Below, piece after piece: positions 40,116 to 47,577 of a stretch of DNA of 64,000 nt (positions are counted from its first letter, which is position 1; each line of letters opens with the position of its first letter). The stretch comes from Escherichia phage a48. The position numbers and the translations under genes are program-made. The notes beneath the pieces were generated by a model. That model was not told the DNA's origin. It saw only the letters and a list, made by a program, of their open reading frames with translations, and ran no database searches. The stretch is taken from the sequence record OQ067375.1, one strand, 5' to 3'.

Positions 40116-40589
40116 TTATTTGAATGATTTGACGTACTGAATAGAGCCTTTGCTATTCACGAAAGCGATTTTACCATTTTTATTATACATGGTAGCAGTA
40201 CGCTGATAACCATAAGTTTGTTTACCAGATTGATAACCAACTAATGCAAAATTATCTTCGCCCATTTTATTCTGTTTGGCGCGGATACGTTCATGACCGT
40301 GTGCCATAAGAACCTTAGCGTCGCCAGTTGCAATGGATCTACGAGTTTTTTCATCTTCAACCGTATTAACAAAGTCGTCAAATGAATCAAATTTAGCATG
40401 AGATTTATTATACAGTTTTCCATCTACTGCATAATTATATCCCTGTACATCCATCTCAACTTCTGTACCATCATCCAATACAGCAGTGATTTTTTGACCT
40501 TTTTTAAATTTCAAAAGATCAGTAAAAGATTCAGCGATAATTTGAGAATTAATAGCTGCTTCAGTAATAAATTCTTGATATGTTTTCAT
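40116..40589 (-). CDS. internal-protein-like protein with capsid targeting sequence
   Basis: 157-aa ORF starting MKTYQEFITEA (T4 internal-protein targeting signal with protease site after TE); late promoter motif upstream. Confidence 0.6.
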   Translation of the reverse strand: MKTYQEFITEAAINSQIIAESFTDLLKFKKGQKITAVLDDGTEVEMDVQGYNYAVDGKLYNKSHAKFDSFDDFVNTVEDEKTRRSIATGDAKVLMAHGHERIRAKQNKMGEDNFALVGYQSGKQTYGYQRTATMYNKNGKIAFVNSKGSIQYVKSFK

Positions 40590-40598
40590 GTGTTTCCT

Positions 40599-41015
40599 TT
40601 AAATGTAAATATTTTTGCCGTAGTATTTATACCAGTGTGGCTTCATTAAAATTTTTTCATCGAGTCGTTGTTGACTCAATTTAATAGCCGATTTGCATGG
40701 GTTATAATCATTTTTCCATTCTGCTGGAATATCGCTGATGTCAGGAACTTCAGTATCTTTTATACTAAACCCGCGTTTTAAGCATTCCGTTATAATGTCT
40801 GATTGACGCTTTCGCAAAAATTCTAACTTATCATAAAAGAACGTAACATGACCAGAACCTAAAATAAACTCGGAAGATATTTTAAAATCTTTAACCCGCT
40901 TACCATTTGCCACATGTTTACGAACTATACCAAAAACACGTGGCAATTCACGGTATTCTGCGATTAAATGTTGATCAACAAGTTCAGATACTAAAGTCAA
41001 ATTAATACGAGTCAT
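40599..41015 (-). CDS. denV: endonuclease V (pyrimidine-dimer glycosylase)
   Basis: 138-aa [15 protein letters not shown]...[11 protein letters not shown], matches T4 DenV. Confidence 0.93.
40624..40631 (-). promoter_or_regulatory. late promoter (TATAAATA) for the internal-protein-like gene
   Basis: Plus-strand tatttata, i.e. TATAAATA on the minus strand, ~35 nt upstream of the ATG at 40589. Confidence 0.5.
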
Positions 41016-41030
41016 TTTATCCCTCCAAGT

Positions 41031-41060
41031 AATTGTGAATATACTATCACAATTCTAGGA
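41031..41060 (-). promoter_or_regulatory. T4-type early promoter for denV
   Basis: Minus sense GTTTAC ... GTGATAGTAT upstream of denV. Confidence 0.5.
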
Positions 41061-41074
41061 GAAAGTAAACAACT

Positions 41075-41605
<531 letters not shown>

Positions 41606-42061
41606 TTAAAAGAGGCTGTTCATTATTCGGTAAAGTGAAGGGCCCATCACATATTGCCACTGAGTACGAGGAATAAGAGCAAAAGCATCCATCTCTGGAA
41701 TCATAACGCCATCTTTATTTTCAAAATAAGACTCGCAATGGCAATTTCTAAACATCTCATGCTCTACTGGAATCGTATAATAAAATAACTGTAAGTCTTT
41801 ATTACTAGAATATTTAAATACACCTAGGTCTTCTAGAAGGTCTGGATTATAATTGCTAAAACCAGTCTCTTCTAAGCATTCTCTTCGTGCTGCATCTAGT
41901 GCGCTTAAATCAGAATTTTCTACGCGGCCCTTTGGAATATCCCAACGATGTGCCATCATTCCAGGCTTACGAGAACCAGTAACCCGACCCATAAATAAAT
42001 CTTTATCTTCTGTCATAAAGATAATACCAGCTGATAATGTTTTCATTTTAATTTCCTGCAT
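41606..42061 (-). CDS. nudE: Nudix hydrolase
   Basis: 151-aa ORF with Nudix box GRVENSDLSALDAARRECLEETGF. Confidence 0.8.
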   Translation of the reverse strand: MQEIKMKTLSAGIIFMTEDKDLFMGRVTGSRKPGMMAHRWDIPKGRVENSDLSALDAARRECLEETGFSNYNPDLLEDLGVFKYSSNKDLQLFYYTIPVEHEMFRNCHCESYFENKDGVMIPEMDAFALIPRTQWQYVMGPSLYRIMNSLF

Positions 42062-42531
42062 TCAGTGATAAAGTTATTTAAATTTTGAGCATATTTCTTT
42101 TCATCAAAAATCTTTTGTTGTCTGCGTAACCGCCATGGCATTTCAATGAACACACACCATATTCCGGATAATATTGCTGCAGTAAAAATATTAACAAATA
42201 TAGTACAAAGAGACCAATCTCCTATTCTGTCCATTGGATTTTTTCCAAAGAAGTAAAATACGAATGATGACGCAGGAAGACTAATGATATACCACAGAAG
42301 CATATTCTTATCCGTAAACCATTCAGCGTTCGTTAACTTAGCACGACCGTTTTGAATACAAACGAATTTATCATCTGTTACAGTAGATGGCTTAACTGCT
42401 TGATATCCCATTCTAAACTCCCTAATTAATCGTTTCTTTGTATCTTCAGAACAGCCACTCCAATCAACTCTATCAACTGAAATGCCATCGTCCCCATCAT
42501 CTAAATCATACCAGCGAGTTTTTAAAATCAT
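42043..42531 (-). CDS. small membrane protein (tandem trio member)
   Basis: 162-aa ORF with hydrophobic helices and C-terminal basic tail ending ITECRKLK. Confidence 0.5.
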   Translation of the reverse strand: MILKTRWYDLDDGDDGISVDRVDWSGCSEDTKKRLIREFRMGYQAVKPSTVTDDKFVCIQNGRAKLTNAEWFTDKNMLLWYIISLPASSFVFYFFGKNPMDRIGDWSLCTIFVNIFTAAILSGIWCVFIEMPWRLRRQQKIFDEKKYAQNLNNFITECRKLK

Positions 42532-42890
42532 CTGATTTTCCTACAATCACTCACAAACTCTTTCATTGATTCATTTTCAATATAAGACATGTAGCTATTA
42601 TATTCTTTTAATTGTATTTTGTAATCTTTTTTTCTTTGCCAATTTATTTTAAAATTATCATAATGAAAATATAACATGGTACCAAAGAATGAAAACAATG
42701 AAATAATTTTAGTATAACAAAGCTCACTCCAAACTTCTGTTATATTTACTGTGCCGTCGATGTTTAAAATAAGACAGTCAATTAACAATCCAAAAAGACT
42801 ACCCGCAAGAGCTGCAGCCAACGCCACAGCAAAAATTAAAAATGACTCAGGAAACGAATATTTGACTTTATTTAGTTTTGGCTTTTGCAT
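42528..42890 (-). CDS. small membrane protein (tandem trio member)
   Basis: 120-aa ORF; C-terminus FVSDCRKIR resembles neighbours. Confidence 0.5.
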   Translation of the reverse strand: MQKPKLNKVKYSFPESFLIFAVALAAALAGSLFGLLIDCLILNIDGTVNITEVWSELCYTKIISLFSFFGTMLYFHYDNFKINWQRKKDYKIQLKEYNSYMSYIENESMKEFVSDCRKIR

Positions 42891-43285
42891 CGTGATTCCT
42901 TAACAAATTTCATAATTTCATCAAATTCATACGCAGCAAGTTTAAGCTGATGTTCCTTTTTAATCTTTTTACATTGGGCTTTCCAATCACGCACGCGTTT
43001 ACGATAGTGTCTTTCTTGATACCAGTATCCTATCCAATTTACGGGTACTAATAAAAATGGAACTACCAATGGAAGAGTTAGCATTAACATAATTATTACA
43101 CCAGATTCAATATCAGTCATAACATCTAAAACACCTCCAATAATTAATAGAATTACAAATGATATAAGTATAACAGGACCTATTAATACATCAGTAGAAA
43201 TTATCTGACGCTTTAATTCATACTTCAACGGTTTACTTGGAAGGTATAGTGATGGCTTTGACATATTCTCTACATTTCTTAACAA
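42872..43285 (-). CDS. small membrane protein (tandem trio member)
   Basis: 137-aa ORF; C-terminus FVKESRCKSQN resembles neighbours. Confidence 0.5.
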   Translation of the reverse strand: MLRNVENMSKPSLYLPSKPLKYELKRQIISTDVLIGPVILISFVILLIIGGVLDVMTDIESGVIIMLMLTLPLVVPFLLVPVNWIGYWYQERHYRKRVRDWKAQCKKIKKEHQLKLAAYEFDEIMKFVKESRCKSQN

Positions 43286-43841
43286 ATTTTTCTAGTAATA
43301 AATCACTTTCAAAATTAGGATTTTCCACTAATTTATCAAAAAGATCATCAACAATATTCAAGATATTTCTTTTACTAAGAATACGTTTATTTTCATGCTT
43401 CGTTTCAGAATCAACTATAAGAGTAAAGAAATATTTCTTTCCCTGAAATTTTACTGTAGTATCAATATAGAATAAATTTGACTTTTGTAAGTTACGTTTA
43501 AACCGTGCGTCACTTAAACTATAAACACCGAGATAATCAAAATCGTCGTTTAAATAACAAACTGTCCATTCAGGAGAAATGAAATCAGTAAATTCAACAT
43601 CAAAATCGCATGTCAATGAATAAATTGATTCAATACTGTTAATAAGTATTCCAGGACGTATTAAAGACTTTTTACCTCTGGAAAATCTTCCAGAAAGACT
43701 TTCATCAGTTTCATATGAAGAACCCCAATAATAATTACGTCCTTCTGCCATACGTTTAAGAGCATTTAATAATTGGTCTGGAACATCAACCTGTCTTTGA
43801 AACTCTTCAAACATTGAATTGAAATCACTTTGCATTTTCAT
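43233..43841 (-). CDS. hypothetical protein
   Basis: 202-aa ORF. Confidence 0.5.
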   Translation of the reverse strand: MKMQSDFNSMFEEFQRQVDVPDQLLNALKRMAEGRNYYWGSSYETDESLSGRFSRGKKSLIRPGILINSIESIYSLTCDFDVEFTDFISPEWTVCYLNDDFDYLGVYSLSDARFKRNLQKSNLFYIDTTVKFQGKKYFFTLIVDSETKHENKRILSKRNILNIVDDLFDKLVENPNFESDLLLEKFVKKCREYVKAITIPSK

Positions 43842-43861
43842 TCCTATTTACTCCAAGTAAT

Positions 43862-43877
43862 AGGGGCCGAAGCCCCT
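43862..43877 (-). other. intercistronic UUCG-tetraloop hairpin
   Basis: Plus aggggc-cgaa-gcccct. Confidence 0.6.
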
Positions 43878-43882
43878 TATCA

Positions 43883-44476
43883 TTATTTCAGAGAATTAAT
43901 ATATTCCTGAACATCGGCAGAGGTAGTTTCAACCCCAGAAATATTGCCATTAAATGTTTCAACTCGGGCAAGAGTATCTTCAATATCAACCTTAGTCAGT
44001 GCTGCAATTTCAACTACATCATCAGCAGTACTAATTCCAAGGGCATTCGCGGCGCGAGTTTCACGGATATATTCCAATTTAACTGCAAGTTCTTGGCGAG
44101 CATCATCTAACTCAACTACTTTCTTGGCGATTTCAATTCGCATTTCAGCATAACCATCAGCTTTAGTAGTCAGCTGTTCAGCTGTTCGACGATATAGCAA
44201 ACCAAGTTTAGCATGCATTGTTACATCTTGACCTTCGGAAAGAAGCTTGCGAATTTCACGCTCTTTTGATTCAGCCTGTTTATTCTTTTCAACAATAAGT
44301 TCACGAATACGTTTTTCTTCATTAATAGATTTAACAGAAGCAGTTTTTAGGTCTTTAATTTTATCAAGCAGTTTTGCTGCTGCAGCAGTATACTGTTCTT
44401 CAACAGATAGATTTTTAGCCATAGCAGAACCAAGTTTAGTGCGAATAAACTCAACAATTTTCTTCAGTGTGTTCAT
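43883..44476 (-). CDS. coiled-coil protein
   Basis: 197-aa ORF, largely helical and charged. Confidence 0.55.
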
Positions 44477-44511
44477 AGTATTTCCTTAGGTTAATTAAGA
44501 TTTAAAATCCA

Positions 44512-45269: not shown

Positions 45270-45731
45270 TTATTTGATTTGTTTAGCAGACCAAATGCGG
45301 TCTTTAATAATTTTTTGGATGTCTTCAACATACTCTAGGTCATGAGCATGTGGATTATCTTTAAAACTATAAGCTCGCGCAAGTTTCTGGCCTTCGGTCT
45401 TAATTACCAAAAGTTCTTTAAGAATTGCTTCATACCTAGAGATAATTCCTTTAGCAATATTTTTTTCTTGTGCTGCTTTAGGGTCAGCCTTAGGAGCAGG
45501 TTTACCAGAAGGTTTTTCGAAAGCCGCACCAGTAGCAACTAGGCTTTTCCAGGCGGTAGTAACATAGTTACCCACAAAGCCTTCAGCTCTCATATCGTCG
45601 TAGAACTTGTACCGAGATTCGTCAGAAGCATCTTTATAAGAATATTTACCAGCTTTAATAGCAGCAGTTGCTACAGCGCGAACATCTGAAGCGGATGCTT
45701 CGGTCATTAAAAATTGAGCATAAGTTTTCAT
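45270..45731 (-). CDS. internal-protein-like protein with capsid targeting sequence
   Basis: 153-aa ORF starting MKTYAQFLMTEA, lysine/alanine-rich; followed by tandem hairpins. Confidence 0.55.
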   Translation of the reverse strand: MKTYAQFLMTEASASDVRAVATAAIKAGKYSYKDASDESRYKFYDDMRAEGFVGNYVTTAWKSLVATGAAFEKPSGKPAPKADPKAAQEKNIAKGIISRYEAILKELLVIKTEGQKLARAYSFKDNPHAHDLEYVEDIQKIIKDRIWSAKQIK

Positions 45732-46121: not shown

Positions 46122-46197
46122 TGGTCGAGGCAGTAGGGATCGAACCTACGACCCAGGACTTAGAAGGTCCTTGCTCTTCCTTCTGAGCTATGCCCCG
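46122..46197 (-). tRNA. tRNA-Arg (anticodon UCU), CCA encoded
   Basis: Hand-folded cloverleaf: acceptor CGGGGCA/TGCCTCG, D-stem GCTC/GAGC, anticodon loop CTTCTAA, T-loop TTCGATC. Confidence 0.9.
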
Positions 46198-46200
46198 TAA

Positions 46201-46866
46201 TTAAAATTTCATTTTTCGACCTTTAAACCATCCTTCTGGAATTGGGTCAGTTTTCTTAATACGTTTAGAAACTTTTTCATCTAATGAATGAATCCACATC
46301 ATACCAAATTGGGAATTCTTTTCACCTTTCTGGTGATTATTTTTAGCGTGAATTTCTTTCATTTTATTAATAGTTTCAAGAGTATGATGCTTATTTAAAA
46401 ATCTGCTATTATTTAAAAATTTTTCCTTGTATTCAGGAGTTGACCATAAACGTTTAAATACATTTGAACCATTTTGACGATATTTTTCTTGAAGTAAAAT
46501 ATCATTTTTAAAACGTGACTTAAACGATTTAGCTCCTTTTAAACTAGCGTCTTTCTTCTGATTTAGCATCTCAGGAATATTTATATGATCCCATCCACCT
46601 TCACCGCCAAGTTTTAAATTATACACATCTGGTCTATTTAAAAACTCTTCTGTGACAATATTTTTCTCGGCTTCAAGCATAGATTCTTTATCATCAAAAT
46701 ATTCTAATATTTCTTTAGAAAAATTTTCTATACCATACCGGTCTTGGGCTCTTTTTAATAATTTACCAGAACCCATATATCCATCATCTAAATTTTCGGT
46801 AGAATGCACACCAATATAAATTTTATTATTAATTTTATTTGTTATTTTATAAAGATAAAAATGCAT
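46201..46866 (-). CDS. segB: GIY-YIG homing endonuclease (SegB-like) inside the tRNA cluster
   Basis: 222 aa from MHFYLYKITNKINNKIYIGVH...YMGSG (GIY-YIG motifs); ORF track's longer start would overlap the upstream tRNA. Confidence 0.8.
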   Translation of the reverse strand: MHFYLYKITNKINNKIYIGVHSTENLDDGYMGSGKLLKRAQDRYGIENFSKEILEYFDDKESMLEAEKNIVTEEFLNRPDVYNLKLGGEGGWDHINIPEMLNQKKDASLKGAKSFKSRFKNDILLQEKYRQNGSNVFKRLWSTPEYKEKFLNNSRFLNKHHTLETINKMKEIHAKNNHQKGEKNSQFGMMWIHSLDEKVSKRIKKTDPIPEGWFKGRKMKF

Positions 46867-46912
46867 ATCAGTCCTTAATAAAGAACTGAGCGTCTCACGA
46901 CGAGTCATAAAT

Positions 46913-46999
46913 TGGTGGGGAGTGGTGGAGTCGAACCACCCGAGTCGCAATGACAATGGATTTACAGTCCACACCGCTACCTCTACGGGATAACTCCCC
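46913..46999 (-). tRNA. tRNA-Tyr (anticodon GUA), class II with long variable arm, CCA encoded
   Basis: Hand-folded: acceptor GGGGAGT/ACTCCCC (7 bp), anticodon stem-loop GTGGA-CTGTAAA-TCCAT, long variable arm, T-arm GGTGG-TTCGACT-CCACC. Confidence 0.7.
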
Positions 47000-47008
47000 T
47001 AATTAATT

Positions 47009-47085
47009 TGGTGACCCAGACCAGATTTGAACTGGTAACCTTTCCCTTATGAGGGGACTGCTGCTAACCATTGAGCTACAGGGCC
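47009..47085 (-). tRNA. tRNA-Ile (anticodon CAU; Met assignment not excluded), CCA encoded
   Basis: Anticodon loop CTCATAA, T-arm ACCAG-TTCAAAT-CTGGT; one acceptor-stem mismatch. Confidence 0.75.
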
Positions 47086-47086
47086 T

Positions 47087-47162
47087 TGGTGCTGATTGAC
47101 GGAATCGAACCGCCGACGTCCTCATTACAAGTGAGGTGCTCTACCTACTGAGCTAAATCAGC
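47087..47162 (-). tRNA. tRNA-Thr (anticodon UGU), CCA encoded
   Basis: Minus-sense GCTGATTTAGCTCAGTAGGTAGAGCACCTCACTTGTAATGAGG...GGTTCGATTCC...CACCA. Confidence 0.9.
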
Positions 47163-47164
47163 AA

Positions 47165-47251
47165 CGGAGGCGATAGGATTTGAACCTATGAGTCGCCGGA
47201 GCGACTGCCGGTTTTCAAGACCGGTGCATTAAACCACTCTGCCACGCCTCC
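47165..47251 (-). tRNA. tRNA-Ser (anticodon UGA), class II, CCA not encoded
   Basis: Minus-sense GGAGGCGTGGCAGAGTGG...CCGGTCTTGAAAACCGG...GGTTCAAATCC; 2-nt spacer to tRNA-Thr. Confidence 0.9.
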
Positions 47252-47253
47252 AG

Positions 47254-47327
47254 TCTCCGTGGCAGGATTTGAACCTACGACATTCTGCTCCCAAAGCAGA
47301 CGCTCTACCAAACTGAGCTACACGGAG
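47254..47327 (-). tRNA. tRNA-Pro (anticodon UGG), CCA not encoded
   Basis: Minus-sense CTCCGTGTAGCTCAGTTTGGTAGAGC...TCTGCTTTGGGAGCAGA...GGTTCAAATCC. Confidence 0.9.
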
Positions 47328-47337
47328 TAAATTAAAT

Positions 47338-47411
<74 letters not shown>

Positions 47412-47416
47412 AAATT

Positions 47417-47503
47417 TGGTGCGAGAAGTGGGACTCGAACCCACAAGGAAATCATTCCGCAGCATTTTAAGTGCTGTGCCTTTACCAATTTGACCATTCT
47501 CGC
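47417..47503 (-). tRNA. tRNA-Leu (anticodon UAA), class II, CCA encoded
   Basis: Minus-sense GCGAGAATGGTCAAATTGGTAAAGGCACAGCACTTAAAATGCTG...GGTTCGAGTCC...CACCA, matches T4 tRNA-Leu. Confidence 0.9.
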
Positions 47504-47504
47504 G

Positions 47505-47577
47505 CTGGGAATAAAGGACTCGAACCTTTGCATCTAGCAGTCAAAGCGCTATGCCTTACCAACTTGGCTAATTCCCA
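47505..47577 (-). tRNA. tRNA-Gln (anticodon UUG), CCA not encoded
   Basis: Minus-sense TGGGAATTAGCCAAGTTGGTAAGGC...GCTTTGACTGC...GGTTCGAGTCC; abuts tRNA-Leu. Confidence 0.9.

Follow-up and report, generated by a model that had tools for sequence, protein, structure and literature searches.

Three adjacent genes for small membrane proteins, orthologous to e.2, e.3 and e.4 of phage T4, share a C-terminal tail motif with the soluble product of the neighbouring gene e.5 in Escherichia phage a48 (OQ067375.1), of which a stretch of 64,000 nucleotides was analysed (hereafter, the window). The gene at the head of the same module, e.6, is predicted from profile comparisons and a structural model to encode a divergent protein of the PspA/IM30/Vipp1 family, within the ESCRT-III superfamily. 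The tail is best read as a portable docking module for a common partner and not merely as a trace of paralogy, because a peptide this conserved sits on very different heads, membrane-bound in e.2, e.3 and e.4 and soluble in e.5. We tentatively propose, with somewhat less than even confidence, that the tails dock e.2 to e.5 onto one common partner, most plausibly e.6.

The window is assigned to Tequatrovirus, and its positions 41000-44500, which match 675 phage records, share 95.8% identity with Escherichia phage HP3. Gene names were given on the basis of PHROG profiles and comparison with the annotated T4 genome, from which the three membrane protein genes are identified as the orthologues of T4 e.2, e.3 and e.4. 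The genes of the module and the tails that they encode are as follows.

42043-42531, minus strand: e.2 orthologue, 162 residues (phrog_2203, 4.6e-76 over residues 1-160), between e.3 and nudE and syntenic with T4 e.2
42528-42890, minus strand: e.3 orthologue, 120 residues (phrog_2330, 1.2e-59 over residues 1-118), syntenic with T4
42872-43264, minus strand: e.4 orthologue, 130 residues (phrog_2604, 5.1e-70), syntenic with T4
43233-43841, minus strand: e.5 orthologue, 202 residues, soluble (phrog_2607, 1.4e-107)
43883-44476, minus strand: e.6 orthologue, 197 residues, heading the module (phrog_1203)
42052-42081, minus strand: e.2 tail, LNNFITECRK, residues 151-160
42537-42566, minus strand: e.3 tail, MKEFVSDCRK, residues 109-118
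42887-42916, minus strand: e.4 tail, IMKFVKESRC, residues 117-126
43266-43295, minus strand: e.5 tail, LEKFVKKCRE, residues 183-192, just ahead of the overlapping e.4 start

The pattern common to e.2, e.3 and e.4 is [LI]xxF[IV]x[ED]CR[KR], and the three proteins terminate in FITECRKLK, FVSDCRKIR and the variant FVKESRCKSQN, respectively. In e.5 the motif region reads …LEKFVKKCREYV… within a soluble protein that has no hydrophobic segment. A search of the window for [FW][IVL]xx[CS]R inside the last 26 residues of six-frame open reading frames (ORFs) of at least 40 residues returned 5 of 232 ORFs, and four of these five are the consecutive genes e.5, e.4, e.3 and e.2. The motif is real and far beyond chance, since the matching ORFs are so few and four of them are adjacent genes.

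A broader consensus was derived from 63 unique tails, 36 carried by membrane proteins and 27 by soluble ones, and corresponds to [LI]-[EN]-x-F-[IV]-K-E-C-R-[KE]. The hydrophobic residues of these tails at positions -3, 0, +1 and +4 fall on one helical face, and Arg or Lys is present at +5. The tail is kept in orthologues of 30-50% identity despite synonymous codon change. Comparison of diverged orthologues (Mosigvirus e.3, e.4 and e.5, Dhakavirus e.2 and families from other genera) finds F encoded by TTT or TTC, I by ATT, ATC or ATA, C by TGT or TGC, and R by AGG, AGA, CGT, CGA, CGC or CGG. From its sequence conservation, the tail is a C-terminal amphipathic peptide under selection at the protein level. 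Processing of the tails by the prohead protease was also considered; the cleavage rule of the T4 enzyme is (L/I)xE, and such cleavage is excluded by the T4-type tails, which read VSD, VKE and VKK.

Membrane segments were located from Kyte-Doolittle hydropathy, and their orientation was predicted from flanking charges by the positive-inside rule. Two hydrophobic segments are found in each of the three proteins, at residues 77-95 and 106-131 of e.2, at 17-43 and more weakly at 57-75 (Kyte-Doolittle 1.37) of e.3, and at 25-46 and 55-78 of e.4. The charges of the first flank, loop and second flank amount to +3/-3/+3 in e.3 and +4/-3/+8 in e.4, and the C-terminal tail of e.2 (+6) is the only basic part of that protein, its N-terminal domain (-1) and loop (0) being near neutral. 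Given the basic flanks and acidic loop of e.3 and e.4 and the basic tail of e.2, all three are predicted by the positive-inside rule to be two-helix hairpins with both termini in the cytoplasm. The second helix is followed in each case by a stretch rich in Trp, Lys and Arg, namely PWRLRRQQK in e.2, NWQRKKDYK in e.3 and YWYQERHYRKRVRDWK in e.4. The preliminary description of this DNA, which was made from the letters and their ORFs, had proposed small membrane proteins with a common C-terminal motif and a Trp- and Lys/Arg-rich segment after the hydrophobic helices, and these features are borne out in all three.

The e.2 protein differs from the other two in having an additional conserved, acidic and presumably cytoplasmic N-terminal domain (residues 1-75). 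Its AlphaFold2 model contains helices at residues 74-95 and 103-160, in agreement with the hairpin; the confidence of the model is low, with a mean predicted local distance difference test (pLDDT) score of 66.6 and values of 60-65 for the N-terminal domain, and a Foldseek search of the PDB with it found nothing better than E=2. In an alignment of 23 e.2 family sequences, extending down to 32% identity, W7, DDGD11-14, DW23-24 and C27 of the N-terminal domain and F154, I155, E157, C158, R159 and K160 of the tail are invariant, and the membrane helices vary. Such drift in the helices beside an invariant tail and N-terminal domain indicates that e.2 functions through its predicted cytoplasmic parts and uses the helices as anchors. 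In our reading, the working parts of all three inner-membrane proteins lie in the cytoplasm and consist of the basic stretch next to the membrane and the C-terminal peptide, to which e.2 adds its N-terminal domain. The e.2 gene of the window is intact at 162 residues. In the T4 reference (NC_000866; 3480-3970 of locus L001) it carries two frameshifts and is annotated as 102 residues, with the second helix and the tail in other frames; shortened forms of 102 and 122 residues occur in other phages, and a close relative (locus L006) has no e.2.

The products of e.3 and e.4 are 90% and 95% identical to their T4 counterparts, and the tail of e.3 is kept in the Mosigvirus orthologue at 37% identity. 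No match to e.2, e.3, e.4 or e.5 turned up in Pfam, NCBIfam, PADLOC or PDB sequences; for the first three, the Pfam/NCBIfam limits on E were 1 or 0.1. PF26896 is assigned to all 82 of the 82 e.2 homologues in precomputed Pfam annotation.

The preliminary description had further regarded the three genes as tandem paralogues, a view that holds for two of them. Single-sequence BLASTP comparison among e.2, e.3 and e.4 aligns the tails only (E 0.02-0.04). With shallow family profiles, e.3 is linked to e.4 at P=3.5e-4 and, over 14 columns, to e.2 at P=1.3e-4; the pairing of e.4 with e.2 is not significant. Deeper profiles were assembled from 20 further loci anchored on e.6, in which ORFs were clustered and all pairs of families compared using hhalign; a word-indexed search with e.3 recovers relatives of at least 69% identity only, and the remoter ones were located by synteny with e.6. 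With these profiles e.3 matches e.4 along the cytoplasmic tail (42 columns; probability 83%, P=8.6e-6), and at P=8e-4 when the tail motif is left out. Both also match a two-helix family in a locus from another genus (L022), over 66-106 columns: e.3 with 94% probability and P=1.3e-7 over 106 columns, and e.4 with 87% probability and P=4.5e-6 in the membrane-helix region, or 5.6e-6 after removal of the motif. The best score in a control with reversed partners was P=2.3e-3 among 45 pairs. Since the family-profile scores are better than this control, a distant paralogy of e.3 and e.4, as members of a larger two-helix family, is probable. For e.2 the match to e.3 is confined to 18 tail columns (P=3.6e-5) and that to e.4 is not significant, so that e.2 appears to be a different protein, which shares with the others only the anchor architecture and the tail.

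The e.6 protein is far better conserved than its neighbours, being found in 1,106 phage records, with identity falling to 32% in RB43 and Cronobacter phage leE. Its AlphaFold2 model (31 sequences, pLDDT 73) comprises helices at residues 2-20, 25-80, 86-145, 165-175 and 186-196, which form an N-terminal helix, a long hairpin (25-80/86-145) and two short C-terminal helices. Vipp1 structures took the first nine places in a Foldseek search of the PDB with this model (best E=9e-4), and the archaeal ESCRT-III protein CdvB2 came next. The relation to PspA was also traced through Pfam matches of distant family members and by comparing the family profile with PDB sequences. No match to PF04012 (PspA_IM30) was found for e.6 itself, and 5 of 32 distant members of its family match that model (best 8.9e-10); one of the distant members, P0208, matches the e.6 profile at 7.8e-23 and, with 35.1 bits, passes the gathering cut-off of PF04012 (33.9). 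When the 32-sequence family profile was compared with PDB sequences, Vipp1 and PspA occupied the top eight places (E 4.6e-5 to 3.5e-4), and E. coli PspA (4whe) scored E=3.1e-3. The profile alignment is colinear, matching residues 1-146 of e.6 to residues 1-147 of Vipp1/PspA, and the region of the hairpin tip is the most conserved part of e.6. An exhaustive search with the e.6 profile returned 46 cluster representatives, all of phage type and about 200 residues long, and no bridge to bacterial PspA. Neither an ESCRT-III review nor the literature searched mentions a T4 homologue. The preliminary description listed neither e.5, which has the same tail, nor the PspA/Vipp1 relationship of e.6, the most informative context of the locus.

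In the RB43 record (NC_007023; locus L035, 3300-3950), e.6 is annotated as a fragment of 97 residues, and its N-terminal part (MIKKIFSFLNNKVE…) lies in another frame; either the gene is frameshifted or the sequence contains an error.

In T4-like genera the motif is found at the end of several kinds of protein encoded downstream of e.6: a soluble protein in the position of e.5, zero to four hairpin membrane proteins, and soluble proteins of 95-110 residues. In every lineage examined, e.6 is followed at the e.5 position by a protein that bears the motif, over a range of e.6 identity from 98% down to about 32%. These lineages include Tequatrovirus, Mosigvirus, Dhakavirus and three further groups, together with a contig of 44% e.6 identity, two Aeromonas phage loci (including phage 31) and Serratia phage X20. 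In all loci examined e.6 lies directly upstream and in the same orientation. The motif is reduced to F-[IV]-x-Y-C, with the Arg gone, in an Aeromonas locus of AS-yj type (L028), and is internal in RB43 (LEKFIHSCKK); in e.5 and RB43 the chain continues for 10-30 residues beyond it. Aeromonas phage 31 and RB43 each have only one tail-bearing protein. In two remoter contigs, one of which has an e.6 relative above the Pfam PspA threshold, small membrane proteins beside PspA-like genes end in a degenerate hhxx(A/C)R (IVHRAR, ILANAR, IVTKAR, IIEQAR). This pattern is loose, and chance may contribute to it.

A second family with a C-terminal motif was seen in the same interval of other T4-like genera and is absent from the window. 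It consists of tandem sets of three to five soluble paralogues (65-105 residues) ending in GW(V/I)SSSxxC*, located downstream of e.3-like genes (L002 3231-4025, L005 2716-3755, L011, L019, L021, L027 and L030). Some deposited names for homologues of e.3, e.5 and e.6 ("sulfurtransferase", "DNA primase", "host specificity protein", "terminase small subunit") have no NCBIfam or Pfam support and are apparent annotation errors.

In the arrangement that we propose, e.2, e.3 and e.4 would present a docking peptide to the cytoplasm from their membrane anchors, and e.5 would carry the same peptide in soluble form. The tails would bind a common partner, most plausibly e.6, and may do so by alpha5 mimicry, occupying the site at the hairpin tip that normally takes the C-terminal alpha5 helix of a neighbouring subunit. 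Once docked, e.2, e.3 and e.4 might hold or control, at the inner membrane of the infected cell, a polymer that is made by the phage and stabilises the membrane, in the way that PspB/PspC act on PspA and LiaI acts on LiaH. Recruitment by small inner-membrane proteins from adjacent genes is typical of the PspA family (PMC7619361). That T4-like phages own an entire remodelling or repair system of PspA/Vipp1 type, in which an e.6 polymer is placed or capped on the host inner membrane by alpha5-mimicking adaptors (e.5 and zero to four membrane hairpins), is a bolder extension that we consider rather unlikely.

In Interface 1 of ESCRT-III/Vipp1 assemblies, the short C-terminal amphipathic helix alpha5 of one subunit binds the hairpin of another. 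The tails and the C-terminus of e.6 have in common, at their very ends, the sequence pattern hydrophobic-x-x-aromatic-[IV]-x-x-hydrophobic-basic. The mimicry is deemed consistent with the data on three grounds: e.6 itself ends in …VQEYINSLK*, with Y192 nearly invariant and the pattern as in the tails; VQEYINSLK is the best match to the tail profile within e.6, lying in the top 0.06% of 16,486 background 9-mers and placing e.6 second of 84 ORFs by C-terminal score; and the hairpin tip is conserved. The case differs from Interface 1 in that the helix would come in trans from a different protein, and the likeness is a weak, statistical one.

Several observations weigh against docking to e.6, which we infer from sequence. 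The tail score of the e.6 C-terminus is 10.7, compared with 18-27 for true tails, and represents a weak and generic amphipathic-helix pattern. The two-helix proteins vary from zero to four per phage, and e.2 is frameshifted in T4 and absent in some relatives, which argues that they are not obligatory partners. No sequence similarity to PspB, PspC or LiaI was found for e.2 to e.4 with Pfam/NCBIfam models. In T4, knock-down of e.2 to e.6 by CRISPRi-ART was scored "Not Fit", meaning that no fitness effect was seen (PMC11879866 supplements).

The five T4 genes give early RNA and all five proteins have been detected, with e.4 and e.5 among the early proteins, e.3 among the late ones and e.2 and e.6 in the middle period (PMC9697503 supplements). 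Both of these recent genome-wide data sets list e.2 to e.6 as of unknown function (PMC11879866, PMC9697503), and they go unmentioned in the HIDEN-SEQ preprint and in the main text on CRISPRi-ART.

Docking onto a host protein instead of e.6 is conceivable, if on the unlikely side; host PspA or PspF, FtsH or another inner-membrane-associated factor could be the target. The proteins e.2 to e.5 would then be polymorphic effectors, their heads varying and their targeting peptide held in common, acting in host takeover, superinfection exclusion, support of lysis inhibition or counter-defence. Early expression, laboratory dispensability and variable copy number make up the typical profile of accessory host-interaction genes, and the tail is portable across unrelated heads, as this explanation would have it. 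It leaves unexplained, however, the strict adjacency of e.6 over deep divergence, and the data gathered here point to no host partner. Superinfection exclusion, lysis timing and interference with membrane-associated defences were the roles suggested in the preliminary description; no match of e.2 to e.4 to superinfection-immunity (Imm), holin/antiholin or defence/anti-defence models was found in Pfam, PHROG-function, NCBIfam or PADLOC. T4 Imm is likewise a small membrane protein of T4-like phages, early in timing and with two membrane helices, and it has no sequence or profile similarity to e.2-e.4. To our knowledge Imm lacks such a tail motif, and we know of no exclusion phenotype for e.2 to e.4.

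It is improbable that the tails serve to assemble e.2 to e.5 with one another, as a hetero-oligomeric helical bundle in a membrane complex independent of e.6. Conservation of the motif in phages with a single carrier (Aeromonas phage 31 and RB43) speaks against such assembly, and a helix of nine residues is short for a stable bundle, even though the i, i+3, i+4, i+7 amphipathic pattern with its conserved Cys and Arg would suit helix-helix packing and the genes are translationally coupled, as is often seen with stoichiometric complexes.

We regard as very improbable a role for the tail as an in-plane, membrane-targeting amphipathic helix of the MinD/FtsA type, which would simply keep the C-terminus, or e.5 as a soluble protein, on the membrane surface. 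The amphipathic character, the basic residues at the extreme C-terminus and the occurrence on soluble proteins would fit, but proteins already anchored by two membrane helices would have no need of it, lipid binding does not call for a pattern as specific as the invariant Cys, Arg and Glu positions with the strict F-[IV] pair, and in e.5 and RB43 another 10-30 residues come after the motif.

A nucleotide-level artefact was the first suspicion, because tail-coding sequence coincides in part with the ribosome-binding site of the gene that follows: TGY-AGG-AAA, which encodes Cys-Arg-Lys, holds such a site in e.2 and e.3, and the ends of e.4 and e.5 have AAATTTGTTAAG(G/A)AA in common. The candidates considered were a Shine-Dalgarno sequence, translational coupling and a RegA-like operator, which we take to be AAAAUUGUUAUGUAA. 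All are excluded by the synonymous variation described above, with six Arg codons from both codon families, by the distance from the tail F codon to the next start, which is not fixed (17-26 nucleotides), and by two particular cases, since Dhakavirus e.2 ends in TGC-CGT-AAA-TGA with no Shine-Dalgarno inside the motif and the tail …FIAKCRAK* in locus L025 (6845-7153) is followed by an intergenic region and no overlapping gene. Recent duplication or gene conversion is excluded by persistence of the motif down to about 32-44% e.6 identity, and the notion that the motif is a by-product of nucleotide constraints or of either of these processes can be given next to no credence.

The arrangement proposed here, with e.6 as the partner of the tails, has its closest parallels in PspB/PspC of the E. 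coli psp operon and LiaI of B. subtilis liaIH, which are likewise small inner-membrane proteins encoded beside a gene of the PspA/IM30 family and which recruit or regulate the neighbouring PspA-family protein at the membrane (PMC7619361). The window proteins differ from these in being encoded by a phage, in being present in several copies, in sharing their tail with soluble proteins and in having no regulator of the PspF type; binding is a prediction here, and so is the cytoplasmic location of the tail, which is predicted from charge.

What was already known of e.2-e.4 is their existence as T4 ORFs, publicly annotated as "conserved hypothetical, predicted membrane protein". Apparently new are the finding that the tail is shared at the protein level and is also borne by e.5 and many other proteins of the interval, the evidence that e.3 is distantly paralogous to e.4, and the assignment of e.6 to PspA/Vipp1. 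Taken together, these results suggest that there is a phage variant of the pairing of PspA with a small membrane partner. The genes e.2 to e.6 have been unexplained T4 ORFs since the region was first sequenced; the shared tail and a PspA/Vipp1-type e.6 turn these five orphan ORFs into one testable module, and the tail peptide marks a set of fast-evolving proteins across T4-like genera. Were the docking true, a virulent phage would bring its own "phage-shock" machinery for membrane maintenance, complete with its own membrane adaptors. This would be relevant to the way in which T4 maintains an intact, energised membrane while DNA is injected, during superinfection and in the course of prolonged lysis inhibition, and would provide a minimal, genetically tractable system of an ESCRT-III-like polymer and its adaptors. 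Were it false, the tail would still be a useful sequence tag for co-functioning accessory proteins in T4-like genomes.

The module is embedded in a run of minus-strand genes whose order along the window (denV, e, nudE, e.2, e.3, e.4, e.5, e.6) is the same as in T4. The window genes correspond to e.2-e.6 of the T4 e-segB interval, for which GenBank L13089 uses the names msp7, msp6, msp5, msp4 and msp3. The T4 locus differs in its e.2, cut to 102 residues in the reference, and in having ipII and ipIII between denV and e, both of which are lacking from the window (41015-41075). The remaining features of the locus are as follows.

40599-41015, minus strand: denV
41075-41569, minus strand: e, lysozyme
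41606-42061, minus strand: nudE, with ATG 42046 as an alternative start
43862-43877, minus strand: GC-rich hairpin GGGGCTTCGGCCCC with a UUCG tetraloop, between e.6 and e.5, a putative stem-loop in T4 record L13089

The junctions within the module are tight, and the overlapping stops and starts noted in the preliminary description are confirmed: ATGA combines the stop of e.3 with the start of e.2, and e.4 and e.3 overlap by 19 nucleotides. The lengths given there for e.2 (162 residues) and e.3 (120 residues) stand, and the 137 residues given for e.4 are to be revised. That figure corresponds to the ORF from TTG 43285 (42872-43285), in which the match to phrog_2604 begins at residue 8. As the PHROG profile begins at ATG 43264 and T4 e.4 has 130 residues, the true start is almost certainly this ATG, giving a protein of 130 residues. 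The overlap of e.2 with nudE is 19 nucleotides, or 4 nucleotides (ATGA with the e.2 stop) if nudE begins at ATG 42046. The latter (MKTLSAG…), and not ATG 42061, is probably the start of nudE, since it is preceded by AGGAAAttaaa and Dhakavirus nudE aligns from there.

In T4 record L13089 promoters are marked upstream of e.8, e.7 and e.6 only. The hairpin between e.6 and e.5 is not followed by a T-run on the coding strand, and e.5 to e.2 are therefore probably transcribed by read-through from the e.6 promoter. A promoter scan of the locus gave no signal above the shuffled expectation.

Further features of the window lie outside the module. Two ORFs (40116-40589 and 45270-45731) start with MKTYQEF or MKTYAQF, which we take to resemble the capsid-targeting N-terminus of T4 internal proteins. 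Nine tRNA genes, including tRNA-Tyr(gta) and a tRNA with a CAT anticodon, are found at 46122-47577 on the minus strand, compared with eight and no tRNA-Tyr in the T4 reference. The tRNA-Tyr gene is situated immediately upstream of a segB-like GIY-YIG gene (46201-46908).

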